From: Euglena gracilis
Lineage: Eukaryota
Length of the DNA: 64,000 nucleotides
Reading direction: 5' to 3'
Assembly (NCBI GenBank): GCA_039621445.1
Contig: CP154954.1
Location: 44,867,847-44,931,846 of the forward strand
Shown: piece after piece, positions 8,628-64,000 of the stretch
How positions within the stretch are numbered: position 1 is the stretch's first letter
How the letters are laid out: every line of letters begins with the position of its first letter
Notes under the pieces: generated by a model
What the model saw: the letters and a program-made list of their open reading frames with translations, nothing else
What the model was told of the DNA's origin: nothing
Database searches by the model: none
Translations under genes and position numbers: made by a program

Positions 8628-8708
<81 letters not shown>

Positions 8709-18794: not shown

Positions 18795-18796
18795 CA

Positions 18797-18850
<54 letters not shown>

Positions 18851-21817: not shown

Positions 21818-21884
<67 letters not shown>

Positions 21885-31929: not shown

Positions 31930-31979
<50 letters not shown>

Positions 31980-32771: not shown

Positions 32772-32821
32772 CCGGGGGGGTGGTCGTTAGACAAGCCCGG
32801 TCGTTGGACAAGGGGGGGGAA
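32229..32821. mobile_element. MITE inserted in an (ACAT)n tract; truncated copy at ~19099-19644; relatives at ~35590-35650, ~48917-49535 and ~56355-56420
   Basis: TIR (C)nTTGTCCAACGACC/GGTCGTTGGACAA(G)n; internal degenerate TTTTGGCCA repeats. Confidence 0.75.
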
Positions 32822-33495
32822 CAGACAGACATACAGACATACATACAGACAGACATACATACATACATACATACATACATACATACATACATACAGACAG
32901 ACATACAGACAGACAGACATACATACATACATACAGACAGACATACAGACATACATACCTACATACATACATACAGACATACATACAGACATACAGACAG
33001 ACACATACAGACATACAGACAGACGTACATCCATACATAGATACATACAGACGTACATACAGACATACATACATACATACATACATACATACATACATAC
33101 ATACATACATACATACATACATACATACATACATACATACATACATACATACATACATACATACATACATACATACATACATACATACATACATACATAC
33201 ACACAACCATACACACAACCATACATACATACATACATACATACATACATACATACATACATGCATACATACATGCATGCATACATGCATACATGTACAT
33301 GTACATGTTCATGCATGCATGCATGCATGCATGCATACAGACAGACAGACATCCCTGCCTTAATAACACACGTATACACATACATACACACATGCATACA
33401 TGCATACATAGAAACATACATGCATGAATGCATGGATGCATGCATCCATCCATCCATCCATCTGTCTGTCTGTCTGTCCGTCCGTCCGTCTGTCC
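32822..33495. repeat. Compound tetranucleotide tract (ACAG/ACAT/GCAT/CCAT/CTGT/CCGT)
   Basis: Direct reading. Confidence 0.95.
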
Positions 33496-36329: not shown

Positions 36330-37315
36330 TGTAGGCCGCGGGACTGGACATTATGCGGTCAATTACGAGTGAGGATTTCCGTGCTGGACGTGCCCCTTCA
36401 GCATCCGTTATGCCGCTTCCAGATGTGTGCCGTGAACAGGGATGCCCCCCTCGAACGCAGCCTCCCCAACTCCACTGGGCTGGCAGTGCGGTGGGTCGAG
36501 CATTTGGGCTTGGGCAGGACCACAGACAGAGGGGAGGTGGGGCAGGGCCGGGCTGTGGGGTAAGGCCAGGGGTAGACCCCCCACATGCAAGAAACCCCTC
36601 TGGACCGAAAAGTCACCGTCCCAGGGGAGGGGTGGTGGCCCCCACCCACTCATCCCGAGGGTGATAAGGACGGAGATGAGGTTGGCGGGGTGGTCGATCT
36701 CCCCCCCACCCCCCCCCAGGGTTGTATGGGAATCTCCGAGGGGGGGGACCCCCCCCTCCTACCTCCAGTTTTCAGTCGCCGAAAATTGGCTTTTTGGGGT
36801 CAAAAGGTCAATTTTTCTGAAATTTCTCAAAAATGGTGGGGAATCAAAAAGAAATGTCCAATACCTAAATTGAAGCCCTTAAAATGCCCTATCTAACAGT
36901 ATTTTAATAACTCCCCACCCAGCCCGAGTTACGGCCATTTTTCGGCCAATTTTGGCCATTTTGCCAAAATTTCATGTTGAGCCTCAAGAGGGTCCTTAAA
37001 TACATACCCGGTGTGAAGCGCCGTAAATTTTTTTTGCCTCCGCAGAGGAGAAGGGTGGTGGGGGGACCCCCCTTCCGAAACTAGGGGGGGGACCCCCCCT
37101 ACCACCTTACCCCCCAGGGGGGGTGACCCCCCCTACCACCTATCTCATGTCTGCGGGGCTTCCCATACAACCCTGCCCCCCCCACCCGTGGGGTTTCAGG
37201 GAGTCCCGGGCAGCCCAGGGCGCGGGCGTGTGGTTGGCGCAGCGGGGGCTGCCGGCGCTGCGGACTCTCACAGAGATTGCCGCGGAGCGTGAAGCGTATG
37301 GGACCGGCCCATAGG
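36330..37315 (-). CDS. Possible orphan exons (~37200-37315 and ~36330-36500): either 5' exons of gene A or further 3' exons of gene B
   Basis: GC-rich open stretches (YGPVPYASRSAAISVRVRSAGSPRC; SGSGITDAEGARPARKSSLVIDRIMSSP); no motif. Confidence 0.25.
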
Positions 37316-38960: not shown

Positions 38961-39129
38961 CAGGCTGTATTTTAGTCGGGTGCCAATCCAACCGGGGGGG
39001 GGGGTGCCTGTCTGGGCAGGCACTCCAAGGCACTCCAAATCCGACCCCCCCCGGGGGGGGGGGGGGCACTTGGCAAAAAGTGCCTAGCAGGCACTCCGGC
39101 GCCAAAGGGATTGGTAGAAAAACAGCCTG
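38961..39129. mobile_element. Shorter copy of the 5323-5625 MITE family, opposite orientation
   Basis: CAGGCTGTATTTTAG...TAGAAAAACAGCCTG; decayed TSD CTGCAGAC/CTACGGAC (6/8). Confidence 0.8.
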
Positions 39130-40392: not shown

Positions 40393-43300
40393 TCAGCAGG
40401 GGCGGACCGCATCCACACCGTCCTCCTCCTCCTCCTCCTCCTCCTCGTCCTCCTCGGGGGCGGTGGTCACGCCACCGGGGGTGTGCCACGTCATGACGGT
40501 GTCCGGCCCGGAGGAGGCCACCTCGGGGCCGTCGGGGTCCACCAGGCGCAGCAGCTCGTACACGCTCATCCCCATCGCCGGCGGCAGGCAACCCACCGCA
40601 GTTGGGGGTGCATGCCAAGGCGCTGGAAGGCTTTTTGGCCAACTTTTCCAGTGGGACCGCGGTTCGAATGCCCACTCCTCAACAGGTGGGGAATTCGTTT
40701 GGTCAACAGCGCATATGTCAAAAAAAGGCAAAAAAAATGGGGGGAAAAGCAGACCGAAATTTTTTCCTGAAAAAAAGACTGATATGGGTACTTCCAGACA
40801 TGCTTTTCGGCATTTGACCTGAATGGCTGCGCACCCCTATGCAATGGGTTCAAATCAGTGCAAATCGGCGGTCGAATTGATAAGCAGTCCAAAATTCGCC
40901 AGTTTTTTTTGCAAGAAATATCTACCCCCCCCCCCAAATAACGGGGCGGGGTGCCCCATTACTGGCACCATCTTTTTGACCTGCCCCGTTATTTGGGCAC
41001 TACCAATCATCATGGAATTCCCTCACAGACCTGTTGTAATGAGTGACGAGTGACACATCCTCCTACTTATGGAAATGATGAGTGTTGCAAACCTGACATC
41101 CGAGACCTTGAATATGATTTTGACCCACCCATTTGTTACCACTAATTTTACAACAAACTTAACACTGAATAATACCAAATAGCACAGCTGGATGAATGGG
41201 GAGGGCAGAGGCAGTCGCCTGAACTTGCCCTTCAGGTAAACGCCGTCCAGCCTCCGGGTAAAATCCAGGCTGCTGTGTGAACCTGAGCATCTGAACTGGG
41301 GACCCCTAACCCCCAAACCCCCCAGAAGCAAAAATAACAAGAACGCCTTGTTGTGGCTCAAGGAAGAACATGAAACAAGTGCAACTGTTCGCAGTGGCAG
41401 GGGGGGGATGGCGCTCTGCCTCCTCGAACCCCCCCCCAGAAGCTCTAATGACAAGAACAGTTTGTCATCTCAAAAGTGTGCAAGTTGCAACGCTTTTTTT
41501 AATCTGATGTGAGTTTCCTGCCTACCCACCCACCCTCGCACCCTCCTTCACCCCCTCCCTGGCCACTCCTCACTTCCTTCAGGCCATATGTGTGGAACCC
41601 TTCGCAATGTTGTTTGCCTGGTCGGGATTTCCAGTGGCCGGAAAGCACCCCCCCCGGGCAGGGCTGTACGGGATGGCCTGGCGGGGAGGGTGGTCGACCC
41701 CCCCACCTGCGAGGTGGGGGAGGGGGCAACCCCCCGTTTCAATGGACAAAATAAAAGTTCTTGTCGGTGCCTTTAGCGCCAACGCAAAAAAAAAAATTGG
41801 CCTAAAAATCGGCGCCCGCAGGAATACTGGAAGGGGTGGGAGGGGTTCAAACCCCAACCGTCAGGATTGGGGGGAGGGGAACTCAGGCTGGCATAGGTGA
41901 GGTATATGGCCATTTCAGGATGTTTTTGGCCCCTTTGGCTAATTTCACCGCTGTGGCCGATTTTTTTTTGAACCACTTTGGTGATTTTTTTTTGAAAACC
42001 GAAAATGAACTCAAATAATCATTTCCATAACTTTAGAACCAGCATCGCATCCAGAAAATTAATTGCATCTGACCAAGGGGCAGGGCTGTACAGGAAGAAC
42101 TGGTGGGGCACTGAGCGAGGGACCCGTGGGAATTTGGGGATTCCCATGCAGGAAGGGGATCCTTGGGGCGTTGTTGGACAACCCAAAACAAACCGCTGGA
42201 CAAATGAGTGATCCTTAATGATTTTCTTGGATTTCAAAGAGAATATTAACATACCAAAAAAGGTGATAGTATTGGCTTCTTCCAGAAATGTCAGAAAACA
42301 TGCTTCAACTTCATTATTCAACACATTACCCACCCCTGAGCACCACTTTCAATTCCATCAATAATGTGCCGGATGTGTCGTTGTTGTTGTTGTTGTCGCC
42401 GCTGGTTGTTGGGGGGGACTTTGTGCACACCTCAACAGGAGCCTCGCCACCACCCGCCGCTCCACCGCGGCGTGCAGCTGCGGCCCGATGAGGATGCGCG
42501 TCTTGCGCTCCTTGTTGAGCCCCTCCAGCCGGCTTGGCCGCAGGCCCGCCGCCTTCTCTCTTGGTCCTTCTCCAGACAGGCCGCAAATGCCCGACAGCCA
42601 CTTCGGGGTGGCTGCCACTGAACTCCTCCGAATTAAAGCAAACTGATGCTTCAAACTGGGTCTCGCCAGTAACTGACCCAGTACCGCTGCTTCAGACTTC
42701 GGGCAGAATGGTGGGGCCCAGCCTGGCCGCCACGTTGACCACATCGCCCACCACGGTGTAGTTCATGCGGTGCCGCGAGCCGAAGATGCCCGCGTGGACC
42801 TGCCCCGCCTCCAGGCCCATCCGGCCGGAGAGGCGGGCGCATGGGGCTCTGCTGGGAATGAGGCGGTGCGGGCAGGGGAAGGAATGGATTGCAGAGGGAG
42901 GTCAACTTGGGGGAAGGGTGTCGCGGCTGTGAGAGGGTGCCCGCCCCGGTGCACCCCGCACAAACGAGGCTTTGCTGGTTCCCTTTTGGTGATGAAAAGG
43001 GAGGAGGGTTGCACGGGAAAAGCAACCCTCTCCTGCTCTTTCCTGAGGACGGTTCACCATCAGCGCGTCTTTTAACCCCCCCCCCCAGGTTGTCCAGTTC
43101 AGAGGCTGGAAAATTCGGGCTGCCAGATAAAGGCTGCTGGCTGACCCCACCCACTTGGGGTCAGGGGGGGGGGGAAATTGATATCGGAGGCCTTCGGAAA
43201 AATTGCGGAAAAATTGCGGAAAAATTGCGGAAATTGCGGAAAAATTGCGGAAAAATTGATATCGGGTATACACATTTCTGTCTGAGGGGACTTAGAAAAT

Positions 43301-46300
43301 TTTCAATTGTGAGGTTCAGAACACCGCAACACCCACGTCGATGCAGGGGAGCACAAATCAACACGCTTGATGTTCTTTGCACAGGTGGGACGCACCCAAT
43401 TCTGTAACCAGTGGTGCACCTGTGAGAAAAATTGGTAAACTGGGGGGAAAAAAACAACAAAACACAATAGCACACCTGTTGATCCATTTGAAGAATGGCT
43501 TGAACTCATTGCATCTTCCATCTTCGGTGGTGGGAAAAAAATTCTGCGGAAAAAAAATGGGAAAAAATTGCGGAAAAATTGCGGAAATTGCGGAAAAATT
43601 GCGGAAAATTGCGGAAAATTGCGGAAATTGCGGAAAATTGCGGAAATTGCGGAAAAATTGCGGATATCAATTTCCCCCCCCCCTGACTTGGGGTACCAGG
43701 CTTGGGCTGGAACTGGGCCCAACCAAGGATCAGGAACCAAAAAAATCGACCATGTAAACTCCAAAAAACTTCCAATTGTGCAAAAAGGCGATCTTTCCGA
43801 CCCATTTTTGCCCATTTTCGGCCCATTTCTTTGACACCTGAAAGCAAAAATTCATCACCGTCCAGCCTCCCGAAGGGTGGCTGGAAACAAATGATAAAAC
43901 CCATTTATGGGGGGCGTCTGGGCTGGAAAGATGCTGGTTGGCTCCTCCCTGGGGATGGGGTCGAATTTTCTTCCACTCGCCAATCTTTCATCCCTGGCTG
44001 CCGTTCTGTGCCCCCCCAAGCGGAAATCACACAAGATGAATATCCTGTTGCCCAGATTGATTCCACTTCCCGCCTGGCCAGAGAACGCCCATCCAAAATC
44101 AGTCATCACGACCGGAAGGCAGGTCTTCAGCCCATCCCCCATCCCCGGGGCCCCGCGATAAAAAAAGCCACCCAGCCTGCGGGGCCGCAGGGCGCCATGC
44201 CTGCAGGGAGCCGCCCTGCCGGTGGACCATCCAGTCTGCGCACTCCAGCGCCGCCCGGCACGCATGGTACTCGTGGTCCTTGACGGGGGACGGGGCGTTC
44301 CAGAAGGCCATGACGCAGTCCCCGGCAGGCGATGGGCCGGGGCTTTGTCGTCCAGAAATGCGGGTCTTGAAAAGCAGGGGATGCCGGTGTTCACGGTTTT
44401 CAAAAACGACAAAGAAAAGGATGTGGCCGGGAAATAAATGAAAAGGACACAACCAGCACCCTTCACAGCCCTCCACCCATTACCCCACAACGATGTCATC
44501 TCGTTTCTGTGCATTACATCCTTTGATCCTGAATCTCTTTGGTAAAAGAAACCCTTGCTGAAATCAACAGCAAATAACTGCGGACAAAGAGCAATCCCTC
44601 GTCCAGGAAACCATGAGTATCAAAAAGAAGCAGGGCGACGCCCACCACACACGAGTGTGGTGGGTAGTGTCAGAGTGAGATGCTTCTCCAGCGGGTCTGA
44701 AACAGCACTCCAAACTCATTCATATGGTCTGGGGCCAAGGCCCACCCTGGCCGCCGATGTACTTGTCGATTACCCCGCGGCGCCGCACGATGATGGAGGA
44801 CAGCTCCTCGAAGAACGCGCCGATGCTCTCCACCAGCTGGGCCCAGGGATCGGCAACAAACACTCCCCACCCCCCACGCCACCAAAAAAAAGCAGAAAAA
44901 CAACTTCGAACCGCCACCGAACTACCCTGCATTCAGCCTCAGAACAAAGTGCTCTAATTCTGCTAAGGCCTGGAGCACTGGTGGGCGTGGATTTACCTCG
45001 CCAGGTCGGGGAAAACCGCTGCAGACCATTTTCCTTCAGCAATTCAAAGCCCAGCAGGGGGGGGGATGTGGTATTTGCAAAAGGAGGGCATTGCAGGAAA
45101 TAATCTATCCTGAGACAATTTTGGTGCACAGGGCGAAGCCTTAGACGGCCGGGAATGCACTTTTCTTGTTGAGTCACAAAAGTATGACAGTTTTAGTGAA
45201 AATGCGCATCCGCGCATTTTGGACCCGGAGTGCGCAGGTGCGCATTTTGCATAGTTTGATGCCTCTTCCAGACTGGGGGGTAAACACCACAAAAATGAGC
45301 TGTTTGGATACACGACTATAAGGACCATCCCCTTGTTTACTGGTTCAACTACGCAGCATGCTGTTTACAGCTGTTTCCCGACGACTGTGGTACAGTGCGT
45401 GGCTGGACTCACACTCGGCACACTCCACACGACATGCGGAACACGGACGACGCACACCAACCTGGACCTGGGTGTGCCACCCTTGTGTTCACCGGTGCGT
45501 GCTGATGGCTCCTGGGGGCAGGGCCTGGTGAACCCGGGATGAGCATGGGAAGGAACACCTTGCAGGCATGGAGACACAGCCCTCCCACGGTCAAAACAAT
45601 GGGGGTGTCACTGAGTATCAGGGCCGAAGAATGCGCACCTGCGCATTTTTTGGAAACCCAAAAGAATGCGCAGGTGCGCATTTTTTGGAATGGACACAGC
45701 CTGTGGGAAGGGGGGAATGCGCACACGCGCATTGACGTTGAAGGACACACTGGGTATGGCCTGTTGTTTGCCTGCCTTGAATGCGAGCTGTGCACCGCTA
45801 TGATGTGGTTTCGGGCTTGCAGAACATGGGTGTGTGAGGGGGAGATGAAATAAAATAATCGGTCTTGGAAAAATTGTCGCTGTACCAGGCCACACCCTGA
45901 AACATGACACCTGCAGCAGCATGGAAAATCCTGGGCTTGGCGATGGCAGGTGTCAAGGCACGAATTCATGTCCTTCAGTGATAGGGGAACTGCCCCCTGC
46001 AGTGCAAGTCATTGAGCAAATCAGAATGCGCACCTGCGCGCTGCAGTCCAGTGCCCAGCCCAGCCTGCGCTGCTCTCATGAACGTGTGGAGCAAGTCACA
46101 ACGCAATGCAACTGTCCCCCACCCGGCGGAGGTGGTGGGCCGGTTGGTGCCAGCGTTGTCCGACCCCACGCCCCAGAGCGTGCATGGCAGCACACAGCCA
46201 ATGGTCGCACTGAACAACCTTACGTTGGGCTGTACGAGGTGCAAGAAGCACTGTGCCCGACAATTAGGGTCAACGCAGGGGGTTGTGTCTGGTTCCACCC

Positions 46301-50514: not shown

Positions 50515-51284
50515 GTTGAAAGGGGGTGCATATATTTGATGCACGGAGCCAAATGACGCACCGGAGGTCAGCCCCTGGCTGAAACAGAAAAGCTGGCGGG
50601 ATCGGTGAGGCCGGACCGGCATAAGCAACGACCTGAGAGGCAAAACTTTGAGATAATTTCTTGTCATCAAAATGGTAACTTCCCCTTGTCATCAAATGAA
50701 CCTTCGCTTTTGCTGAAAAGTCGAAATTTCAAGAAATATCTGAAAAAAATTGCTTTCCAGGAACATGATTTTTTTAAAGAAATAATTAAAAAAGCACTAT
50801 ATAAAAGCACTATATAAAAGCACTATATAAAAGCACTGGAGAAGGGGTTGTGGTTGGACAAATGTCAGTGTTTAGACAAGGGAAGAAGGGAGGTGACGTG
50901 AGCTTAAAGATCCTGGACAGTGTCACCCCCCCCCCGACTCCTTTGAGTGAGGATCAGCCACTTGTAGCCCGACGGCGTGACCGGACGACAATATAAAGCA
51001 AGAACTGTGGCACCACAGCACCTGGATGATGTTAACCACGCATCAATTCGGGCAAACATCTTTCACCATCAAGAAAGGCTGGTTTCCTTCAAAACGTGGT
51101 TGCTGAGGTGAAAAACCAATCAAGCTGGAAGGAACACCTATGCAGCCACTGGTGGTCACGAACTGTACCAAAAACCTGGAGGCACATTGAACCAACCCTC
51201 ACCCAACATCAACACAGACCGATATTGGAGGAAGGGAAGAGGGGGTTTTTGGCTTTTTTGGCCGAGACCCGGTTGTCCCTCAGC

Positions 51285-54200
51285 TCGGGCGGTGGTCTCA
51301 CACCGCAGGCACACGCCGCGGTTCACCCAAACCTTGTTGATGGGGCGGGCGCACACCGTGCACGGCGTGGAGCCGGAGAGGTGGCGCTGCGGCAGACATT
51401 GGTCGGGGGCACAGCCCTTTCCGATTTTGTGGTGCTAATTTTTTTGTGGTGTCAGGGTTGATCAATGTTCGGCCCAGCTTGGAGCGCTAGGCCGAACATC
51501 AGCCAACACGCCATTCTTCACAACAGCTGTTTTGCCACTCGATCAAAAAAGGATGGAAGGGGGTGGGGCAGAGAAGCGCCGTGGGCACCGTGATCGCTGA
51601 AGGCGGCCACCATGTTGTCCCACAGCGGCGCCACCGCCTGCCGCACCTCTGCCAATAGCTGCGGCAGCTGGAAGTCCTGCGGCAGGAAATCCGCTGAGTG
51701 GTGACGGCCGAGGCCCGTCCGTCCGCTAACCCCAGTGTCGCAGCACCCTGAACGTTGGTGTTGACAGGCATGCACCCATTGCTGGACTATGTGGTCCAGT
51801 CGCACTCCCGTTGCGGGTGTTTGATGCAAGCTCGAGATACGTACGTGCCTGGCGGACCCCGGGGCTGGCGGGGCCGGGGTCACCGATGCGAAACGCAGGG
51901 CGGTGCGGGCCCTGCCCCGGGGAGCGCAGCGGCCGCTGGATGACGGCCAGCCAGCGGAGCACTTCGCGGTTCACGTCGGCGATGCCCTCCAGGGTGTGGA
52001 GGCAGCCACCCCGCTCGCAGTGCTTAGCCAGTGCTTCGCCATCAAACACCAGACAACCCATCCAGTTTGGTGTATGGGTTACTTGCACTGGGAGGGTCAC
52101 CCTCTTAGGCGGCCGAATTCGCACTTAAGCTTTTTTCCTTTTGATTTGCGCAATTGCGCAAATGCACGATTTTTTTGTAAACCCTGGGACCCTGTACCCT
52201 GACAGCCGGAACACGATTTATGAGCTATGACACCCCTCCACTGGAGGGGATTGACTCCCAGTGGTCTGGTGTGCATGCTGCTTGCCAGGTGCCGTTAATA
52301 GGGCGGATGGTGAGACTTGTGCTGTTGTTCATCAAACGGGAGAGAGGCACACACCCCTTGTGACGACACTTGGAACTGGTGCTGACGTGCTGCCTGAACT
52401 GGCTGTGACACTGCCGCCACCGGTAAGAACACACTGAGTCTCATGACATCACACCACCACAGACACACAGACTACGTGAGGCAGCCGTCACCCAATTGAT
52501 GTGTGTTTGTGCGCGCAATTGCGCAAATAAAAACAATTGTGTTTGATGCGCGCATTTCGCAAATAAAACATACACCGATGATGATAAAATGACGTGTTGG
52601 TGGGCGCCAGTGCGCGCACCAACACATTTGGTGGTGTGCGCATTTGCGCAAATGCGCACACCACCAAATGTGTTTGGTGCGCGCATTTATGCCCACAAAC
52701 ACGTACGTTTACCTTCCATGTTAAAAGACACCAATGAGGACCATGACTTAGAAGGTTTAAAAACGTGGTGGACGTGTTGGTGCGCGCAATTGCGCAAATA
52801 AACATAATTTTGTTGATGCGCGCATTTGCGCAAATGCGCGCATCAACATGTTAATAAACCGCTTCCAAATAATGTGTTTGTAGGGCCCTTAGAGCACATA
52901 AACAAAGTTTGTTGATTTGCGCAAATGCGCGCATCAAAACACATCAGTTGTGGGATGCCATCTCCTGCTCTGTGACGGCTGGCGAACACAATTCCTCACG
53001 CCAGCCATTGATTTGCTCCAAGGTTACGTGGCGATGAAATTGGTGGTGAGAGGTGGTGTGGAGTGTTCACTGGAACACGGCATGTGACTGGCCAAAATTT
53101 GCCTGCCTTACGTGTGTACATGTGCACTGCTGTTCCCCGGTCCGAACGGTCTGTTGTTTTGGTGTCATGTGTTTGGCAGTTAAACGTAATGAGTTGATGA
53201 CGTGCAAACGACCTGTGACTGTTGGACACTTTTTGTGCAACAGGACTGCGTTACAGGAAGACAAAATTTGGCACCTGAAACACCCGGGATGTGTCCGGCC
53301 GGAGTCCGTTTTACGGTTTTCTTTGCCATTTTTCCCTTGAAAAATGTAAAAAACACCAGTTTTTGTGCATAATTTGGGGGGAGTGGGTCCCACCGCTTTG
53401 ATGCGCCCAATCCAGGGGTAAAGGTTCAACACTTCCTTGCATCCAAAGTAACGGGTGTTTGAGGGCCACCTCTCTCCAGCTGTTGGTTGCCATGCACTGG
53501 CACCACGTCGTCCCCCCAGTCTTACACCCCGGTTGCGGGGTATAACGGGGCCGCTGTGGTGGGTGTCGTTGCACCGGGGAGGTCGATGCCGGCCTGCTGG
53601 GTGCTGAAGCATCAGCAGCTGATGGGGCTGCAGCAGCGGAGCCGAAGCCGCAGGCCAGCTGCAGGGCACTTGGGACCCAAAAATTGGTGCCCGTGGAGGT
53701 GAACGGTTACTGGGTGGCTTTGCACCCACCTTCAAAAGATGCTATGTCTCCATCTTTTGCCGGACCTGTCAATGGTCCAAAAACGGCACAATAACACCAT
53801 ATCCCGGAGGGGACGGTGTAGTCATTTGGGTTGAACCCACTCAGAAGCCACTAAGGGTGGCTGTAGGGGGGCCGAATGAAGTCACTTATTACTCCTCCAC
53901 TGGTGGTTTATTTGCGCATTTGCGCGCATCACGTTGTTTTGTGGGCGCAAATGCGCAAATAAAACAGATGTAAACTGAACAATTTACATCTGTTTTATTT
54001 GCGCATTTGCGCCCACAAACAACGTGATGCGCGCAAATGCGCAAATAAACCACATCTGCTGTCGGCGTTTGACGGCCATGTTTCCGTCACACCGTTCTTC
54101 TTTGCGTTTATGGGCGCAAATGCGCGCATCAAACACAAAACACGTTTGATACGCGCATTTGCGCAAATGCGCACATAAACATGTTTTGTGTTTGATGCGC

Positions 54201-57200
54201 GCATTTGCGCCCCTCAGCTTGCGCCGTCGACAAACAGTGAGATAAACCCACCAACTGGACGGGCCTTGGACTGCCCACTCACAGCTCCTTTGTCACACCG
54301 TTTATCAACAGCGTCAATTCAGGGTGTCAAAGCCCAATCTCCAGAAGGACATAAGTGTGCGCATTTGCGCAAATGCGCAAATCAACATAAACATGTTGGT
54401 GCGCGCATTTGCGCGCATCAAACGCAATTTTGTCCTTCCAGTGTTGGGCTTCTTCCGCTGGGTTCATTGCCACACCACTGGTTGTGTGCATCCCGGGTAT
54501 AAGCCGGGTGTGAGACACCCATCCCCTTCATTCCCTTCATTCCCTGCGGACCCCGTTTCTTCCCCCTCTACGCATTCCTTCTCAAACACCCCGCAGTCAC
54601 CTTCCTTCCCCAGCGTCCCTCTCGCCGGCTCGGTCACACCACACCCACACCCCCTGGCACCCTCCTCCCCGCGCTTTAACAAACAGCCCAAAAACACCAC
54701 ACCAAGGCGTCGCAAGCAACGCAGTCCGGCAAACACCCGGGACACACACCGCCGGCAGCTCGGACACACCTGGGGACACAGCCGAAAGAAGCAGCAAGGG
54801 CAGTAAAGGTCCCGTTCCTAAGGTGCTTTTTTGCGTTTTTTTCAGTTTCGGCCGGCAGGGTCCCGGGGGTTTGGGCCCACAAAGTCCTTCCCGACACCCC
54901 CCAAAATCACTGTTTTTCGCCAAAGTCCCGGGGTTCTCACAGCCAAAATCAGAATTTTGCTCATTTTTTGCACTCTTTTGTTCACGTGTTTTCAAACCCC
55001 CCGGACCTTCACAGCCAAAACAAAGCACAATCAAAAAAATCGTAAATTTGCGCAAATGCGCAAATCAAAAGAAAAAAGCTTAAGTGCGAAATCGGCCGCC
55101 TAAGACCCTCCCCTTGGACAAAAAAGAAACTGGGGGGGCTTCAAAAAAAAGGCAAAAGTTTTCACACCCACATGTTTCTTGAAAAATCGGCCAAAACAAA
55201 AAAATTGTCTTCCCTGGCAGTAAGTGCCAAGGCTTTTTCCTCGTTCCGGGGGTCCCAAATCCTACCTCGGGTCTGAAGGGGGGGGGGGGTTGCACCTTTT
55301 CCCCCAAAGCAAAACCAACGTTCACTTGACACCCTGTCATATTATGTACAACCACTGAGGTCAACGGCAAAAGGAGCCAAACCCCCAACCTGCAATCAGA
55401 GCCGGGGGGGGGGGGGGGCAAGTGGGTTCCAAACAAAAGAAATACATAAAATATGCGGTCAAGGACTGGGGCAGACTTCTTTTTACCAACCCGGGTTGGC
55501 TTTGGACCCCAGTGCCTGCCGACCCAGGCAAATTTCCCTTAAAAATGGCCATTTTCGGGCCGCCAGCGCCTTGGGTCTGGGGGATATAGCACTACCCCCC
55601 CCAACCCCCCAGGGTCGAAAGTTCACAGACAAAAGGGCCAGAAGCGAAAAACAGCGCCAGGCCAGAAGAAGGGATAAGGGGCACCAAATAAACAGCCACA
55701 GTGCAGGGGGTCGAAAGTGCCCCACCCCCCTGCCTGCCCACAGCACTCCCCCCCCCCTTAGTTGCACTAAGGCTTCTTGTCTGTTTATGGCCGGCGCTAA
55801 CTTCGCTTCTGGCCCAGCTTGCTGTGTGGTGAGTGGCCAGGTACCCCTTACCAGGCTTCTTTTTAAGACCCCCGGGGGGGAGGGGGGGGAATGCAGCGCC
55901 AGGCCTTAAACCAGACAGAAGCCAAAGTGCATCTAAGGGGGGAGGGGGGGTCCCCCCCCCCCACCCAGGGTGGCGCAGGCCCCCCCCCGGGGGGGGGGGA
56001 CCCCCCCCAAAATCGGGCCCGTTAAAGGCAATTTTCAAAAAATTTTGGCGCTTCGCGCCGAAAAGGTATACCCAGCGCCTCCGGCGCGGGACCCCCCCCC
56101 CCCCCCCGCGGGTCCGGCCAGGACCCCCCCCCCACCCCCCCCCCAGCCCCCCCCGGGGGGGGGGGGGGGGTCAGGTGACCTAAAAAGAAGCCTGCCCCTT
56201 ACACCAGTGCTCTTTTGTTGCTCCGCCTGGCCGGGTGAGCAACTCTGGTGTAATTCCAGCGCTGTAGGGACATACGCTTACCTTGTGTGGTTGGTGTGGT
56301 TCCCGTGGGTGGGTCTCCCCCCGGGGGGGGGGGGGCACTTCCTTTAAAAGAGGTCTCGACCGGGGGGAGTGCCCCACCTCTCAAACTGCAGTCAATGGCC
56401 GTGGGGTGGTCGTTCGTCACATGAGTGGTCATAGGGCGAGAGGGGGATACAAACCAAAAGGCCAAAGGCCAATGGTTGCGGCGACGGGTCTGCGGAGACG
56501 CTGGGCGGAGGTGCATGGCGTGGTGGATGCGGTCGCTCAGCACGCCCGGGGCCGGCTGGAACGCCCGCAGCGCAGTGAGGGCCGCCGGCAGCCGGGCCCC
56601 AACCCACTCCAGGCTGGCCTCCAGGCGGGCCACCAGGTCCACGATGCGGAGCACCTTTGGCGGCAGCGCCGGCCCGGGGAACGCGCCGCAAGGGACGCCT
56701 TGCTGACCCCGACCCCCGACTCACTAAGTGGGTCTTTGAGCTAAGCCCTCCCCCCCCCTGTGGGGGTTGGGCCAAATGGTTGCCCCACCAGAGGCGTGGT
56801 TTTCCTCTGTTTTTTTTTGGACCCTAGAATTGGGCCCCCCAAAAGTGCCCCCCAGAGCCCCCCCCCCCCCCAGGGGGTGGGTGGACAAGTCTGGACCCCT
56901 CAGGGGATTAACGAAAAAAGGGGGGAAACCTGTTACTATTATTAACTGTTATTTCCTCCCAGGAGGAAAGATCGAGCACTTTGCTGGGAGCGAATGAAAG
57001 TTTCCTCCGCCCTGAAAAGGCACCAATCAACACAGGGCAGGGATCCAGGCTCCAAATGAGCCACTGAACCCCCTCCCCGTAAAAAAAGACACGCAGCCAA
57101 ATGGCCTTCATCGCTACACACACTCTTTGCTTTCAAGCCATTGTGAAACACCATCTGCAAACAGGCGTCCTTCGGCAGACGACTGCTTTTGTTTTGTTCC

Positions 57201-60200
57201 ACAGGGAAGGGGAGGAAACCCTTGCGGTGAAATGCATCGCAGATCCCGGAGATAATCCGATGGGGTACCCGGCGGGGATCCTCACAGCACGGCGCTGGGT
57301 GAGACCCCCCGGGCGATGAAGACCTTTTCGGTGTAGGCAAGGATGTGGGCTGCCGGAAGGCGGAAGCCTGAGAAAACCCACCCCGAAAGCTTCCCTGCCT
57401 TGGCGGGACTTGGGCCGCGAAGGGGGCGAGGATGGCGGCGGTGGTGTTGGGGGGCGGGCACCCCGTCCGGCATCGTGAGGAGGAGGAGGAGGAGGAGGAG
57501 GAGGAGGAGGAGGAGGAGGAGGAGGAGGAAGCTCCGTCGAGCTGCCACACAGACTTATTGGAGAAATGGGGCACCAAACAATGGGTCCAGCCAAAGAACA
57601 CCAGCCTGGTGGTTGGGATCATTGTCATCACCATCATCCTCCTCCTCTTCCTCCTCTGACAGACTAAAATGGTGCCGAGGTTGGCAAAGAAGACAAAATC
57701 AAAATCAAATCCTGCAGATGACCCAGAATCTTAAATCTTCTTTGAGTACTCTTCTTTGACATCAACTTCTGAAAACACATCAATGATACCACAAATTTAC
57801 AGAGGTGCAGGCAGAAAATTTTTTTTGATGGGAAATCTGCTGGGAACGATGCATTGTGCTATGCTGTGGCCACTTTGATACATGAGTGTGGAGCGTCCGC
57901 GGAGGTGTGATCCTGTGAGGGAATGATGCTTGGTGTCACACCATTGTTGGCCACGCCCAGTGAAGGGATGATCAATCGCCCGCCCCATGAACTGCGCGGT
58001 AAAGACGCGCGCATGCGGACATGCATTCACACACAGACAGACAAACCCAGAGAGTATGCACACTGTATCTGGAAACCGTCAAGCAGTTGCGTTGGACCCA
58101 AAAAAGGGGTATCCTTCTGATCAAGAACGGCGTGATTGGAAGGGAGGTCGTGGCGACCGCACCACTCTCGCCCGTGTGGGACCGAATCCACGCTTCCGCC
58201 CGCTCCAGGGCTCGTGCGACGCCCAGGCTGTGGGGCAAAGCCACGGTCTGGCTCAACGAAGACAGCAAAGACCGATCAAATGTGGGGCAAGGGGGGGGGC
58301 ACCGGTCGACGCCAGCCCTTGGGCAGGGCACGCAAGGGCTCGGGGACCGCTGGGTCCGCAGCTGCTGGGGGTGTGCGAGGAGAGCCAGGGATGCGACTTA
58401 CTGGGGGGGGGGTTGGCCCTTTCCATTAGAACACAAATCTGTCCGACCGCGTTCTGTGAAAAATCTGCAGGAATAATGAATGGAATAATGAATTGAAATT
58501 GGTCAACAACGGGAAAATAACGATTTCTGGAGTCCCTGGAAAAAGCGTCCATCCGCCCAAAACACCAATAATGTCGACCGTTAGAGGCCCCAACCAGGCC
58601 GTTACCAGCTACTCAGATCTACAGGCCATGTAAAGGTGTAAAGGCCAAAGAGAAAGGGTTTAACGGTCTTTAAAGGTCCTTAGTTAATTTAAAAAAAAAT
58701 CCCGTCCCCACCTGGCATTGGGGGGGGGGGGTCGGATGCTCCCCCCCCCCAGAATGGACGTGGTTGAACTCCCCCACCACTCAAAGGGGTTCGGGGATTC
58801 CATACAGCCCTGAAATGAGAGTGGTGCAGCTAGCCCACGAAGGACGACCTCTGAGCACATCCCTGGCCAGAGACGGGGTCACTTGCTTCGCTGTTTGATG
58901 CCGGGGGCACGTACACTGCGTGGCTCTCGAATTCAGCTTCACCGTCTGAAGAAGGAAAAAAAGGTGACTGGTGGTTAAAGACAAATCCGCAGCATACGTG
59001 CTTGTAAGGCCGGGGAGTGCGGCGCTGCGCTCCACTCGGCCCGGGACCCACGAGCCCCCAGCATCCCCTTCGGGGTGCCTCGGGACGGAGCAGATCCACT
59101 TCGTGAACGTCCGAGCGTCCGTCACGGCCAGCAGCATCCCCTTCAGGCGGGAGAGGAGGCACGAGAGGTGGACGTACCGCTGGTGCTCGGGGGCCTCCGC
59201 CGGGGTGCGCAGCAGGTCCAGGGCGTTGCCTAAGGATCCTCCCTCCCTGTGGGGGTCCAGCTCAGAGGCTGAAAATTTTGGGATGGCTGGATAAAGGCGT
59301 CCCGGGCGGGAGCTAGGCCCGGTCTGGGGTCAAACCGCATACTAAAAAAATCAAAATCACAAAAATGTCAAAAAAAACTGCCAACTGTGCAAAAAAAAAA
59401 ATCGATGTTTTGACCCCAAAAATGTCCTGGCTTTTTTTTTTTGATTATTGCACCCATTGCATCCCCGAAAGGGAAAAATCGGTCACTGTCCAGCCGCCCC
59501 AAGAGCGGCTGGAAATTAATAAATCTCGATGATGGGGGGGTCCGGAGCTGGAAAACGGCTGTTGGCGGGAAAAAAGGCTGCTGGCTGGCTGGATCCCCCC
59601 CGGCGGTGTGGGGTCAAGTTTTCTCAAGCAACGCCCTGAGCAGGTCACAGTAGTGAAAGACGCACAGCCGTTTCAGCTGGCGTTCGACATTTGAGCAGAG
59701 GGCTTTGGTACCAGGCGGAGGCCACCCCCCCCAAAAAATTAAACACGACACTGAAATGGTGGGGGTAGGAAACTTTGCACCGTCAATGAGCACCTTGAAG
59801 TATTTCAAGAGTTTGCCCAGCCCCGTCCAATGTGGAAACCTGACCTCACAATGTATCCTGCATGTTTCAGGCAGCAGCATTTTCCAGTGAGCAGCATCTT
59901 CCCAGCTGTGGACCACCACGTTTCTCCCCCTTGGATTTTGAATTGTAACTGAGAGGCATGAATTTACCTCTCTGGGCTGCAGCACCCCCGGCTCTGGCCA
60001 AACAATGACGAAGCACCCATGGTCATCCAGATTTCCAGACCCAGTCACGCTCAGTCACGCCAAGTCACGTTCGGTCACTCACAACCAGACCAGTCCTAAC
60101 ACAGAAAAAAAAGGGTCAAAATTGGTAAAAGTGGAGGGGTGTCATTTATGACGGGGATGGGCAATGCCTCCCTGGCGGCAAACAACCACCCCAGGCACCA

Positions 60201-61740
60201 TCAAATTCAGCCTCCAGTTTGAACCTGGCTCTCCAGTTTGAACCAGGAATGTTTCACATCAAAAATGCACATGTCAAATGAGATATACGTAATGGAGTGG
60301 CCCAAAGGTCGGTGGCAGAAAGACACTGATGGAAACACAAAGCGACCTCTGGAAGGGCAGCCTCCTGAGCTGAGCGCAGGCTGCCCAGAAATGTTTCGAC
60401 GGCAGCAACCTAAAGGTTGGGGGTCTGGGGTGGGGGTAGGTGGGGGCGGATTGGACTTGAGACATTCAAATCAGAGGATGGGTAGGGGGCAGGTTTGGAG
60501 CGTTGGCAGGACAGTGTGGGTTTCTGGGGGACCCCCCCTTTACAGATGTCCATTTTTGGACCCCTTCCAATCCCCCCGAGATAGATGAAAACTTTGACAC
60601 AACTAAGTGGCCATTTTAGGCCCCCCAAAAAGGCCTCAAAATTCTTCCGGCACCTTCCGTGCCAGTTCTTGGTCATTTTGGGGGGGTTTGCAATACAGTT
60701 GGGACACTGGGACCAGGCTTCTTTTTAAGTCAGGAGACCCCCCCCTTGGGGGAGGGGGGTGGGGGTGGGGGTGTGGGGGGGTGGGGTCCGTGGCCGGGCC
60801 CCCCCCCCGGGGGGGGGGGGCCCCGCGCCGGAGGCGCTGGGTATACCTTTTCGGCGCGGAGCGCCGAAAATTTTTGAAAATTGCCTTTAACGGGCCCGAT
60901 TTTGGGGGGGGGGGTCCCCGCCCCCCCCCCCCACCCCCCCCCCCCGGGGGGGGTCCCGCGCCACCCTGGGTGGGTGGGGGGGGGACCCCCCCCCCGGGGG
61001 GTCTTAAAAAGAAGCCTGACTGGGACGCTCCCCCCCATCCCAGCACAGTAAAGCAAATAGTGCTATTTTTAGAACTTTTTGGAACCTCGGGACCCCTCCT
61101 CTCCCTCCCAATGTTCCTTGGGTTCACGGCCAGGTCACGGGGGGGGGGGAGGGATCGGGAACCAATCCAGAACTAAATAAATAGGTATTCAAATTTTAAG
61201 CATCTCAAAATATTAAAGAGATTTAGCAGCAAAACAAGAATCACCAACCCAAATTAAAAAGTTCAAGCATTAAACTTGGGAAATCCACCAAAAATTTTCA
61301 TCAAATTCCAAATCACAAAATTGCAGATCACCAGAGAAAAAGGTCAGAGAAAAAGGTTGCCAGGGCTGCTAGTTCAGGTTTCGGGGGACTCCAGTTTGGG
61401 GACCACCCGAATGCGGAGGCCGTGTCTGCAGAAAGCATTACCTCTAGAACGTTCTACCTACAGGAGGTGAAGCCTGGTAAAGATGAGAAACATCTTCTTG
61501 AGCTGCACGAGCTCCTGCCGGACCATGAACGCCTCCGGTGGGGCCGCCTCCTTCTGGCGGCAGCCCCAAAAAGAAAGCCAAAGGGCATCGCACTGCCTCA
61601 GGGGTGCGACAGTTTCAACACAGAAGGGGAGGGGGCGAAGGAGAAGGCGGAGCACGGCCAGCTGCCGGCAACGCTCCAGGATGCAGCCCACCACAGCGGC
61701 GGGCAGTGAACCCTCGAGGTCACGCTGGGCCGCTTCGAGG
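51285..61740 (-). CDS. Gene C: multi-exon gene of unknown function, largely helical, with a Cys-rich segment (CTVC...CLRC) near its 3' end
   Basis: GC-rich open segments at ~61480-61740, 61105-61125, 60370-60415, 59775-59920, 59642-59720, 59040-59213, 58830-58945, 58150-58250, 56490-56700, 51880-52030, 51590-51690 and 51285-51390. The in-frame join YCDL|LRTP was verified by hand; no family recognised. Confidence 0.55.
52103..55105. mobile_element. 3.0-kb TIR element with 3-bp TSD, related termini
   Basis: TIR TCTTAGGCGGCCGAWTTCGCACTTAAGCTTTTTTC extending ~70 bp imperfectly; TSD CCC; many TTTGCGCAAATGCGC motifs. Confidence 0.88.
55852..56194. mobile_element. hAT-like MITE (CAGGCTTCTTTTTA family)
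   Basis: 14-bp TIR; 8-bp TSD CCCCTTAC. Confidence 0.92.
57477..57528. repeat. (GAG)n trinucleotide tract
   Basis: Direct reading. Confidence 0.95.
59219..59638. mobile_element. hAT-like MITE inserted in coding sequence of gene C, forming intron 59214-59641
   Basis: Perfect 11-bp TIR CAGGGCGTTGC/GCAACGCCCTG; perfect 8-bp TSD AGCAGGTC at 59211-59218 and 59639-59646. Confidence 0.9.
60714..61018. mobile_element. hAT-like MITE, same family as 55852-56194, opposite orientation
   Basis: 16-bp TIR CAGGCTTCTTTTTAAG; 8-bp TSD ACTGGGAC. Confidence 0.92.
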
Positions 61741-63799
61741 GAGTAGAAGCCAGAGCATTGCAAGATGTTGGGGCAGGGAGTGCCAACTTCAGCGACCATG
61801 GCCTCCCCCCCCCTGCAGCTCAAAAACAAACTGCGAGCTGGGGAAATCGGTGAAATCTCTTGCAGTGTCCTTCTCAAGATGGGCCATGAGGACAAGTTTG
61901 AATGAGTGTGGCATAGACAATCGCTGGTTTTGGCCACTTTTTGTTTCATTGTGGCAACTTTTCCACCCATTTTTCTTTATTTGGGGTGGTTTTCACTCAT
62001 TTTCTCCATATTGGGTCATCATTCCATTTCTAGTATTTTGGGTCAATTTTGGAACACAAATATCTTTTTGATATCTTGCTTTTGTAGTCCTTTGGGCTTG
62101 ACACAGACACCTACAACATCCTTCAAAAAATCATTTTTTTGCAAAAAAAAGGACATTCTGCATTTTTTCACAAAGTCCTGCAAAATGCAACAAAATACTG
62201 CAAAATTGTGTTTTATTGTGATTGTTTATTGGAATACCTAATGACTAGGTAATGCAAAGGTATCGAGGAAGAGTGAAAAAATGGACGCCTTCTTGTAGCA
62301 CGAATATTCACGAGCAATCACTAATAATCACAAAGTTTGTTGAAATGCCATTTTTTCAATCACATTTCGCCCCAAATATGTTTGCATTTCATGTCAAATT
62401 GCGTGCATTTTGATCTCAAAAGGTTTGCACTTGGCACCAATGCCTGCATGTTGTCTCAAAAATGTGTGCACACTCTACCAAAATACCATAGGGAACCGCA
62501 AGGGGGATCGGAGGGGGGGAGGCTGCCCCCCTGTGATTTTGGGGTGAAAAATTTTTCACCCCTGGACCCGCCCCCCCGAACCCTATTCTGAACTCAATTG
62601 GGCTTCCAATATTCACAAAAAAATACACACTGACTAGGAAAATCTGCAATTCCAAAAAAAAATTCATCGGGAATAAAACACAATGGCTCTGATGATGAAA
62701 ATAGACAAAGGTAGCACAGGAGAGAGGATGGCAGAGCAAAGGCCTCTCGCCATGCTTGTTTTCCTTAAATCAGAGGGACAATTTCAGTGATGAGATAAAT
62801 TTTGATTCATAAATACTCATAGTTGTTTGTGGTTATTTGTGATTATATTTGCGATTATTCGTGATTATTCGTGATTTGGAGAACCCCAAAGTTTGTGCTG
62901 GTTCGTGATTATTTGTGATTACTCTCACCCCCCCCCCTCAAACTGGCCGCCCCTTAGGCACCTTGGACCCCCAAACGGTCAACCTCGAGGGGGGGGGGGC
63001 AATGTGGGGAGTACCATTTAACCATTTTTGACTGAAATAACCAATTTGGGGGGGATTCTTTTTCCAGACCGGATGGCCAATTGGGGGGGGGTGGAAAACC
63101 GGCCAACTTTGGAATGGTGAATTTCTGAAAACCGAGCGCCAATCTGGCCTGGGTTATCTCCCAAAACCCAAACGGTCAATCTGGGAGGGGGGGGTGAGAG
63201 CATACGTGGCATGGATTTGGGGAATCCCTGCACAAAAAAAAACACTGCCACACATATCTTTCAAAAATCCCGAATGTTTGGTAAAAAAAATGGAAAATTT
63301 TGGCACAAAAAACCAACAGGAAAAACACAAATTGATTTCTATCCCACAAAACATGGCTTCTTGATATCTTTGCTACTTCTGCAACTTCTTTGCAATTATT
63401 AAGCTTTGTCAAGGAGAAGGTTTTCATTCACTCCCTGAAAATGGGGCTCCACATCAAGAGGACATAGCCCAAGAATGCCTCTGCTGATGTGAGCTGCTTG
63501 GGCATGACTTATGAATTGTGTTGCATCTGCCCATGGCGGCCCTGCAAGAACATCCATTGTGATGTTCCCTGAGCAGGATCCAATACAATAAGACAGCATT
63601 GCAAACAAAAATGGCAGACGACTCTAAAACCCTAGCCTTCGTCTGGGACACAGTTCAATTAATGAGGATGTGTTGGTTAACCCGAAAAAAGGTCGCCTTG
63701 TGGTATCTTGCAAGCACTTGTGTACAAACAATTGATAAAACATATTGACGGTCTTTGCCAATGAAAAAAAAAAGACGAAGAATAACAAAATTTTAGTGG

Positions 63800-63910
63800 T
63801 CGAATATTTGTCGACTCTTTGCTAGAATATTTTTGCAATATTCGAATGTTCGAATATTTTGAAGTAATCGAATATTCGTCGAATATTCGAATGTTCGAAG
63901 CAGCCTTATG
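63800..63910. repeat. CGAATATT/CGAATGTT palindromic repeat cluster, probably a transposon end
   Basis: Multiple TCGAATATT(CGA) units ending in GCAGCCTTA. Confidence 0.6.
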
Positions 63911-64000
63911 CGGGCCAGGCGGGGAGTTGCGGGGAAATCAAAATGCCGTTGAACAGGGCATTTTGAGGGCTTCAGTACCACCCCCCCCCCCTTATTGTCC

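Follow-up and report, generated by a model that had tools for sequence, protein, structure and literature searches.

Nonconventional (NC) introns make up ∼72% of the 649,158 introns of Euglena agilis, and where they come from is an openly stated question: a PNAS 2025 paper writes that their 'origins remain unclear' (PMC12501133). A MITE origin has already been published as a hypothesis, in a 2024 review that speaks of 'TSD-like' repeats (PMC11282704). The locus described here, from a 64-kb window (the whole stretch of 64,000 nucleotides of Euglena gracilis DNA that was analysed), puts this question in a concrete form: can one sequence be both a structurally intact transposon and a precisely spliced NC intron in a conserved coding exon? 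We consider it very probable that the intron is the insertion of a non-autonomous DNA transposon in a coding exon, removed as an NC intron. The locus would then show the proposed intermediate directly, and offer a direct case of the transposon origin that has long been suspected for euglenid NC introns.

NC introns are defined by a short code in which CAG and CTG are essential and a 3-nt spacer is strict; in the synthetic introns that worked, a spacer of 5 nt and a purine at the acceptor were built in as well, and 50-nt synthetic introns on these rules splice (PMC12501133). We write this rule as N3-CAG...CTG-N5|R. The features of the locus are the following.

51273..63557, minus strand: host gene ('gene C'), minimum extent; its exons match ortholog P0002 (626 aa) over residues 5-451.
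59642..59690, minus strand: upstream coding exon (...ERQLKRLCVFHYCDL), from RNA joint, frame and ortholog; read placement gives 59639-59690.
59639..59646, minus strand: the copy of the target-site duplication that lies upstream in coding-strand direction (GACCTGCT), from the direct-repeat search; the NC-intron rule assigns its nt 1–5 to the exon and nt 6–8 to the 5′ spacer of the intron.
59214..59641, minus strand: NC intron, 428 nt, placed by the N3-CAG...CTG-N5|R rule, from RNA joint, cut k=+3 and fold; termini 5′ GCTCAG... and 3′ ...CTGGACCT.
59219..59638, strand not assigned: MITE-like element, 420 bp, from size, interior texture and genomic repeat depth.
59628..59638, minus strand: terminal inverted repeat, arm at the intron 5′ end in transcript orientation (CAGGGCGTTGC); its CAG is intron +4..+6.
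59219..59229, minus strand: terminal inverted repeat, other arm; its CTG is intron positions -8..-6.
59211..59218, minus strand: target-site duplication, downstream copy, from the direct-repeat search; nt 1–5 (GACCT) form the intron 3′ spacer, and nt 6–8 (GCT), with the purine G first, belong to the exon.
59004..59213, minus strand: downstream coding exon (LRTPAEAPEHQRYVHLSCLLSRLKGMLLAVTDAR...), from RNA joint, frame and ortholog.

The two copies of the 8-bp direct repeat (AGCAGGTC on the plus strand) have a spacing of 428 and enclose an element with CAG...CTG ends, whose arms form a perfect 11-bp inverted repeat; the inverted ends stretch to 16 nt at 88%. An earlier note, made from the sequence of this DNA, had described a 420-bp element with a perfect 11-bp terminal inverted repeat and a perfect target-site duplication, and its coordinates and sequences hold, as do the translations it gave for the flanks (...CVFHYCDL before, LRTPAEAPEHQRYVHL... 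after). The interior consists of G/C runs and A/T runs, a texture that the note had likened to that of the intronic MITEs; the likeness is qualitatively right, and both kinds of run, together with a GGGGGTCCAGC...-type subterminal motif, come back at 38.9, 39.3 and 43.1 kb. The element is too small for transposase coding, the longest stop-to-stop frame wholly within it being 81 codons. An Rfam search of positions 56000-64000 gave 0 matches.

This combination of 8-bp duplication and 11-bp inverted repeat is far beyond chance. Perfect 8-bp direct repeats abutting perfect 11-bp inverted repeats, 40–3000 bp apart, number eight in the real window and are found in 0 of 200 random windows (first-order Markov); four or more of the eight real hits (32189, 52817, 53921, 54121) fall in sequence that is tandem or of low complexity. 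The length of the flanking direct repeat was also surveyed, for all 38 perfect inverted-repeat pairs of ≥10 nt in the 64-kb window that begin with CAG. It is 0, 1 or 2 nt in 34 of the 38 pairs and exactly 8 nt in the other four, with 3–7 or 9–12 nt in none. Since the lengths are only 0–2 or exactly 8, the value of 8 is a property of the CAG-ended elements.

Is this sequence removed from transcripts? The earlier note had named outcomes that would count against it, among them retention of the element and use of the AG at ∼59231 instead. What is found is an RNA joint, 59210>59639, that skips exactly 428 nt with an ambiguity of 8 nt and is present in all three RNA data sets, which come from different studies; a joint at that AG is absent from the 15 joints listed of 48. 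The main splice support is one assembled contig, a 600-nt spliced contig of data set X15 with a depth of 29.4, against a depth of 1.6 in the bin wholly within the element. X15 is taken as RNA by guess; it covers exons, and its 6 joints are absent from DNA. Raw-read support is thin, with one read in run X21 (shorter side 52 nt) and one in run X24 (shorter side 50 nt), for ∼5–6% of each run sampled and a raw-read depth of 0–2 reads per bin. These two raw runs were chosen by their species label.

Template switching is classically met where a direct repeat flanks a strong stem, and a joint that is ambiguous over exactly the 8-nt repeat could be written by a reverse transcriptase, or an assembler, passing from one repeat to the other across the hairpin. 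Such an artefact is extremely improbable here: the same joint would have had to arise in three separate data sets, the joined form far exceeds the in-element depth in X15, and the 3/5 rule also holds for removal of the repeat-free neighbouring introns 60372-61479 and 59691-60354. NC splicing has moreover been shown genetically, through restored protein function (PMC12501133).

Splicing being the preferred reading, the position of the cut can be considered. Nine equivalent placements of the intron, from 59211-59638 to 59219-59646, yield one mRNA, and the mRNA cannot fix the cut within the 8-nt repeat. On the coding (minus) strand GT/GC..AG borders occur in 0 of the 9. Only k=+3 gives GCT-CAG...CTG-GACCT|G, that is N3-CAG...CTG-N5|R; it opens with GC but closes with CT. 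The cut GACCT|GCT that had been proposed from the sequence is this sole fitting placement. With it, a perfect 11-bp stem starts from +4/-6 and 14 of 16 end positions pair, and when the intron is folded a 17-bp terminal stem closes the MFE and centroid structures alike. The stability of the whole-intron fold is unremarkable (z = -1.63; 7 of 100 shuffles were as stable or more so), and its energy was dropped as evidence; it is the terminal stem alone that is exceptional. The exact cut within the repeat is most plausibly that of k=+3.

One other placement deserves mention. A cut shifted by five places (k=+5) gives GT..AG on the plus strand, as would befit a conventional intron of an antisense transcript, and the mate direction of the RNA reads is mixed and too sparse for strand, so that frame and ortholog decided the strand. 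Of the six frames of the spliced 643-nt stretch only minus frame 0 is open, for 214 aa that match the ortholog, and the other five, all three plus frames among them, have stops; in addition, the other seven introns of the transcript have GT-AG on neither strand in any placement. The plus-strand reading was rejected on the plus-frame stops and the sibling introns, and has next to no chance of being right. Precise removal from the mRNA, as an NC intron of the minus-strand gene, of 428 nt comprising the element and one target copy is supported.

The same frame speaks for the host gene. In BLASTP the spliced frame has 136/204 identities with P0002 (E = 2e-92), and over the junction ...RLCVFHYCDLLRTPAEAPEHQRYV pairs ungapped with ...RLCVFHYCDLLHTPSEAPEHQRYV of that protein. 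Removal of the 428 nt therefore joins the flanks in frame and ungapped against the ortholog, as the earlier note had claimed in saying that removal restores the frame; its fear that gene C might be an unexpressed pseudogene is met by a gene that is expressed, has an open frame of 214 aa and is conserved against P0002. This protein (GGOE01042270), from a related species' EukProt transcriptome, is the sole homolog of the spliced protein; the GGOE prefix presumably denotes a Euglena longa transcriptome. A Pfam search of P0002 gave 0 families.

The joint is an RNA feature as far as the DNA goes. In X1, the one DNA run compared, its depth is 0, the five further joints of the 600-nt X15 contig are all missing, and no element-free (empty) form of the site is seen, although the run covers 30 of 30 bins of the stretch. 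The joined RNA might still have come from an element-free genomic copy, be it an empty allele, a somatic excision, a paralog or a retrocopy, given that a single DNA run was compared and that contigs drop rare variants. We judge this very unlikely. The depth of 0 applies to all six joints together, and a copy without introns, if present at ordinary genomic depth, would persist in contigs. A somatic origin would furthermore call for precise, footprint-free excision that restores the target, which is unusual for cut-and-paste elements.

If the intron is an inserted element, relatives of it are expected in the genome. In X1 the three bins that overlie the element have genomic depths of 2076, 1425 and 11741, against ∼15–40 in most bins; this is ∼50–470 times the neighbouring bins, as summed contig depth rather than a copy number, and part of it stems from a 31-nt motif (59571-59601) common to many families. 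A variant of the element interior with a 1-nt indel is present in six X1 contigs, and interior variants at least 95% alike occur in several genomic contigs. A second full-length, near-identical copy was not seen as sequence in the X1 contigs or the 64-kb window. A metagenome scan with the exact 21-nt element end gave 0 hits; three metagenome contigs (L001-L003) found with a degenerate 21-nt subterminal motif as query match over only 21–22 nt and are not family members. Within the window, other elements are recognisable.

43060..44000, plus strand: diverged older relative of the element family, from block-by-block alignment along its length, with ends CAGCGCG... / ...CCCTG and no recognisable duplication.
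∼43154-43686: nested CAG...CTG element interrupting this relative.
4541-4825, 5315-5633, 55844-56202 and 60706-61026: intact CAG...CTG elements, each flanked by a perfect 8-bp duplication, the sequence of which differs between them.

The elements at 55844-56202 and 60706-61026 are one family (CAGGCTTCTTT ends) at two sites with different 8-bp duplications, and the 64-kb window contains at least five intact CAG...CTG elements that have an 8-bp duplication. A further element, at 36717-37175, has CCCCCCCC as its 8-bp 'duplication', which may be chance. The other intact MITEs were also considered as possible stand-alone exon introns, by open frames across their empty sites, but in this GC-rich DNA long frames arise by chance. 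Taken from its structure and repeat depth, the 420-bp sequence is probably a transposon, and its insertion probably young.

The age of the insertion can be set against the other introns of gene C. GT/GC-AG is absent from all eight RNA-supported introns of the stretch; N3-CAG...CTG-N5 fits four of the eight, including both unambiguously placed CAG/CTG introns (60372-61479 and 59691-60354), which have one placement each and no flanking repeat; and every gene C intron that can be placed is nonconventional. When the duplication is reconstructed for the seven rule-placed gene C introns, which share CAGG... ends, it is 8/8 identical in the 428-nt intron and 2–4/8 in the other six, so that the match runs from complete down to chance level; the longest perfect inverted repeat is likewise in the 428-nt intron (11 nt, against 6–9).

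An old NC intron could in principle look like this one, if its perfect end repeats and the 8-nt flanking repeat had been kept by selection or chance. Splicing depends on CAG/CTG and on pairing of the ends (PMC12501133), which puts the inverted repeat partly under selection; five of the eight bases of the upstream copy and three of the eight of the downstream copy are coding, in a protein conserved at that point (CDLL); and an empty site is lacking in the one DNA run. We nevertheless hold great age to be unlikely. The 3 + 5 spacer bases were unconstrained in knock-in tests, substitutions beside CAG/CTG leaving splicing normal (PMC12501133), yet here they match at 8/8, whereas in the six siblings they do so about as often as expected by chance; and the closely similar interior variants in several contigs point to a recently amplified family.

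For the preferred reading, a young insertion spliced as an NC intron, the following course of events can be proposed. A 420-bp DNA transposon would have inserted in a coding exon of a minus-strand euglenid nuclear gene, making an 8-bp duplication. In RNA its inverted ends would pair, and the resulting stem would close the whole element and bring the duplicated 8-mers together. The NC splicing machinery would recognise CAG/CTG at the base of the stem and cut at a distance of 3 nt before CAG and, ahead of a purine, 5 nt after CTG. The excised piece would be the element plus exactly one target-site copy, and the mRNA would return to the pre-insertion sequence (TGT GAC CTG CTG CGC, encoding C D L L R). 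Because the two spacers, of 3 and 5 nt, together equal the 8-bp target duplication in length, nothing of the insertion is left after removal. NC introns are described as leaving after conventional introns, as full-length circular RNA, by a non-spliceosomal route; by analogy the 428-nt intron may take the same route, though back-joined reads are absent from those listed, at the RNA depth of 0–2 reads per bin.

It is possible, at a little under an even chance, that the principle is general: the 3-nt/5-nt offsets of NC introns would mirror the 8-bp duplication of one still-active, hAT-like CAG...CTG superfamily from which most of the hundreds of thousands of Euglena NC introns descend, intron gain would be continuing, and the splicing machinery would have evolved around the elements or come from them. 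Support for this in the window comes from the 8-bp-only duplications, the five or more intact elements and the decay series in gene C. An active family would make Euglena a case of ongoing intron birth with a knock-in assay in place (PMC12501133). On this view any such element that inserted into an exon, whichever way round, would be cut exactly out of the mRNA provided that target position 6 were a purine; it would be born as an intron. The predictions are that the flanking-repeat ('sliding') length of young NC introns peaks at 8 and that their ends cluster in MITE families; the 8-bp duplication would then explain the 3/5 cut geometry.

Among DNA transposons, hAT elements have inverted repeats of ∼10–25 bp starting C/TA(G/A)nG and make 8-bp target-site duplications. 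The 420-bp element has the hAT-type 8-bp duplication and short inverted repeat; its size, 11-bp CAGGG... ends and duplication make its structure hAT-like, and a hAT affiliation is plausible on these features. Its target, GACCTGCT, presumably departs from the consensus, itself weak, of hAT target sites. P and Merlin elements, which also make 8-bp duplications, are set aside by the CAG end alone. Maize Ds1 reportedly acts as an intron, to go by cited titles, and maize Ds is said to be removed from mRNA at spliceosomal cryptic sites, usually imprecisely; removal here is exact, and by a non-GT-AG code. Maize Ac/Ds, and especially the short, non-autonomous Ds1 of ∼400 bp, resemble the element in having 11-bp inverted repeats from C/TAGGG... 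and an 8-bp duplication (PMC3260210). The ends of a neighbouring gene C intron, 58381-58868, are even CAGGGATG. The likeness is structural only; transposase, subterminal hexamers and sequence similarity do not tie the element to Ac/Ds.

Introners and other MITE-derived introns (Micromonas, the dinoflagellates Polarella/Amoebophrya, Fritillaria) are closer in what they do: a DNA transposon with inverted ends turns intron at insertion, duplication and element ends supply the splice signals, and the mRNA is restored (PMC11282704), all of which is like the 428-nt intron. A spliceosomal introner has GT/GC...AG created by element and duplication, and this is seen in 0 of 9 coding-strand placements here. 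The noncanonical introns of Fritillaria probably use the U2-type spliceosome, whereas the 428-nt intron has no GT/GC or AG pair of borders on its coding strand; the Amoebophrya duplications are 3–5 nt, against 8 nt here, split 3/5 around the stem (PMC11282704).

The closest match is with the NC introns of Euglena gracilis and E. agilis (PMC12501133, PMC3935182, PMC6221363, PMC11282704). As described in these sources, they lack GT-AG borders, have CAG at +4..+6, CTG at -8..-6 and an acceptor exon starting with a purine, and are removed precisely after paired inverted ends join the junctions, which carry a 'slidable' short direct repeat; the 428-nt intron shares every one of these properties. 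In the literature searched, figures and supplements aside, we found neither the 3 + 5 = 8 equality nor a link of hAT elements or 8-bp duplications to NC introns. What sets the present intron apart from those described is that it coincides in extent with an element whose 8-bp duplication is still perfect, whose inverted repeat measures 11 bp and whose relatives are repeated.

The earlier note had described this element, which lies in a coding exon of a minus-strand host gene, as a young intron that is still an intact transposon. Sequence reading of 58800-60100 and a repeat finder agree to the base with its coordinates for the element, 8-bp repeat and 11-bp inverted repeat:

59211-59218 and 59639-59646: direct repeat, AGCAGGTC on the plus strand and GACCTGCT on the minus strand.
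59219-59229 and 59628-59638: inverted repeat, CAGGGCGTTGC and its reverse complement, immediately inside the 8-bp repeats.
59219-59638: element between the two repeats, 420 bp.

The inverted repeat is perfect over 11 bp and 88% matched when extended to 16 nt. A scan of the window for perfect 11-bp inverted repeats that directly adjoin a perfect 8-bp direct repeat, at a spacing of 40-3000 bp, yielded eight cases; 200 random windows from a first-order Markov model yielded none. Of the eight, no fewer than four sit in tandem or low-complexity sequence. The direct-repeat and inverted-repeat structure of the element is well beyond chance. Perfect inverted repeats of 10 nt or more that start with CAG number 38 in the whole window; 34 of these pairs have an abutting direct repeat of 0-2 nt and four have one of exactly 8 nt, while lengths of 3-7 or 9-12 nt do not occur. 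Since only these flank lengths occur, the 8-bp duplication is a property of CAG-ended elements in the Euglena genome.

Five further structurally intact MITE-like elements in the window each have a perfect 8-bp duplication of differing sequence (their coordinates take in both duplications), and three of their end sequences are alike (CAGGnnnTTTTTTAAG-like). They are listed here with a diverged relative of the studied element, identified by block-by-block alignment:

4541-4825: intact element, CAGG... ends, one mismatch in 11.
5315-5633: intact element, CAGG... ends, one mismatch in 11.
55844-56202: intact element, CAGG... ends, CAGGCTTCTTT.
60706-61026: intact element, CAGG... ends, CAGGCTTCTTT, inside the host gene's intron of 1108 nt.
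552-2271: intact element, CAAG... ends.
~43060-44000: diverged relative, ends CAGCGCG.../...CCCTG, no recognisable duplication, holding a nested CAG...CTG element.
43154-43686: the nested element, long CAG(G)n...(C)nCTG ends, two internal arrays of a AAAATTGCGG-like 9-10-nt tandem repeat, ACTTGGGGT on both flanks.

The elements at 55844-56202 and 60706-61026 form one family (84% identity over ~215 nt, 55989-56194 against 60714-60927), and 5478-5625 matches 38961-39108 at 85% identity. A CAG-started perfect inverted-repeat pair of at least 10 nt at 36709-37183, 459 bp end to end with CCCCCCCC on both flanks, may be a further element with an 8-bp duplication, or the match may be a coincidence within C-runs. 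Elsewhere, 6464-19644 and 19645-32771 form a direct tandem duplication (13.2 kb, 98.5% identity), and 52500-54400 and 32100-33460 abound in short motifs, palindromic or in tandem (TGCGCGCA / TTGCGCAA, CATG/CATA repeats), which yield false MITE-like matches in the scan.

Four sequencing runs were mapped on 56501-62500: X21 and X24, two of four raw RNA-seq runs from the same organism; the RNA-like contigs X15, from a few small runs presumed to be RNA; and DNA-like contigs X1. A joint 59210>59639, which skips 428 nt with 8 nt assignable to either side, occurs in one X21 read (shorter side 52 nt), one X24 read (50 nt) and an X15 contig of depth 29.4; raw-read depth is very low, at 79 and 45 mapped reads from ~5-6% of each run, with one supporting read per run. 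In X1 the depth of this joint is 0, though X1 covers all 30 bins. The 600-nt X15 contig with the joint also holds 58232>58321, 58380>58869, 58902>59004, 59690>61480 and 61539>61654, none of the five being present in X1. X15 depth is 1.6 in the bin wholly within the element, against 14.5-16.2 in downstream-exon bins and 29.4 for the spliced contig; on this rough estimate the spliced form is the dominant form in X15.

Concatenating the exons by coordinates gave 643 nt in which minus frame 0 alone is open (214 aa), with stops in the other five frames. This includes a 17-nt micro-exon (60355-60371) between nonconventional (NC) introns of 664 and 1108 nt, whose letters are present in the spliced RNA contig between the joint sides and have a single exact match in the window. 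Of 719 candidates in a homolog search with the downstream-exon translation, one matched: the EukProt transcriptome protein P0002 (626 aa; 78% identity, E = 7.5e-30). In BLASTP the spliced product shares 136/204 identities with P0002 (E = 2e-92) and the junction aligns without a gap (RLCVFHYCDLLRTPAEAPEHQRYV against RLCVFHYCDLLHTPSEAPEHQRYV); with the open frame, this bears out the earlier claim that taking out the element plus 8 nt restores the frame. By tblastn, the minus strand holds exons for P0002 residues 5-451 from 63557 down to 51273, and a Pfam search of P0002 found no family. Judged by these comparisons, the host gene is conserved but unnamed. One of its introns contains a long trinucleotide run (57468-57539; poly-Ser/Glu/Leu-type frames), skipped as a repeat in read mapping.

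The 8-nt repeat gives the 428-nt intron nine equivalent placements. None has, on the coding strand, the GT/GC...AG borders that define a spliceosomal introner, which was rejected on that ground; a GT..AG intron on the plus strand (cut shifted by k = +5) was also rejected, the plus strand being antisense to the only open frame. Exactly one placement, 59214-59641, fits GCT-CAG...CTG-GACCT/G (slash, cut), with an 11-bp perfect stem from +4/-6. It is the cut GACCT/GCT that the earlier note had proposed under N3-CAG...CTG-N5/R; we infer its exact position within the repeat, which mRNA cannot place and excised RNA alone can. Among the eight RNA-supported introns of 56501-62500, GT/GC-AG occurs in none, whatever the placement, N3-CAG...CTG-N5 in four, including both with unambiguous placement, and N3-CAC...GTG-N5 in two. 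Ortholog-predicted introns 61769-63440 and 56659-57300 have the same pattern, with stems of 9 and 8 bp, respectively. This is the code that passages of PMC12501133 give for Euglena NC introns: CAG and CTG are each essential and the donor spacer is strictly 3 nt, while synthetic introns were designed with a 5-nt acceptor spacer and an acceptor exon starting in purine, and 50-nt synthetic introns following these rules were spliced. RNA folding encloses the whole intron in a 17-bp terminal stem in both MFE and centroid structures; the whole-intron folding energy is unexceptional (z = -1.63). The 59219-59638 locus demonstrably combines the transposon structure, exact removal, a restored conserved frame and a fit to the NC code, and we consider it very probable that an intact MITE is here spliced exactly as an NC intron.

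In the mechanism that we consider most likely, the element would have inserted into the exon at GACCTGCT, duplicating that 8-mer, and its inverted ends would pair in the pre-mRNA, where machinery recognising CAG/CTG at the stem base would make its cuts outside the stem, at a distance of 3 nt on the 5' side and of 5 nt on the 3' side. Because 3 + 5 = 8, the excised piece would be the element plus exactly one target copy, and the message would revert to TGT GAC CTG CTG CGC (C D L L R). With ends that form an inverted repeat, either insertion orientation would give the same outcome. For a non-spliceosomal route of removal through circular RNA we rely on published work on NC introns (cf. PMC11282704). 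The locus suggests that the 3/5 splicing geometry is matched to an 8-bp target duplication.

Parts of the element are highly repeated. Summed X1 contig depth, which is not copy number, is 2076, 1425 and 11,741 in the three bins over it, against ~15-40 in most bins; a large share of the last comes from a 31-nt motif (59571-59601) common to many unrelated flanks. Six X1 contigs carry a 1-nt length variant in the interior A-run, several link the two ends across differing interiors, and at 59571, 59601, 60714 and 60820 reads and contigs pass into numerous distinct flanks. Like 59571-59601, 60701-60900 is an extremely repeated short segment (summed DNA-run depth 177,220, against the same ~15-40). 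Among the seven rule-placed NC introns of the host gene, the reconstructed duplication matches at 8/8 positions in the 428-nt intron against 2-4/8 in the other six, and its perfect inverted repeat spans 11 nt, theirs 6-9. As spacer bases carried no sequence constraint in published mutagenesis (PMC12501133), these values point to a young insertion, undated since no empty site was seen in the one DNA run, X1.

The 428-nt intron shows all the testable defining features of euglenid NC introns. A MITE-like transposon origin of these was proposed in 2013 (PMC3935182), when according to that paper no transposable element was known in euglenids, and was repeated in 2018, 2024 and 2025 (PMC6221363, PMC11282704, PMC12501133), in the passages concerned always as a hypothesis. 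The 2024 review words the flanking repeats as 'TSD-like'; the 2025 paper states that NC-intron origins remain unclear, and set aside as 'slidable' the introns flanked by repeats (84.4%). In the main text of the openly available papers searched, nothing relevant linked hAT elements or 8-bp duplications to NC introns. Maize Ac/Ds, of the hAT type, has 11-bp ends (C/TAGGGATGAAA) and an 8-bp duplication, Ds1 being ~400 bp (PMC3260210); our element resembles it in end length and sequence type, duplication and size, and a neighbouring host-gene intron even has CAGGGATG ends. Membership of hAT is putative and only structural. The intron is an unusually clean case of a known kind, not a new kind, and its locus makes the twelve-year-old MITE-origin hypothesis directly checkable.
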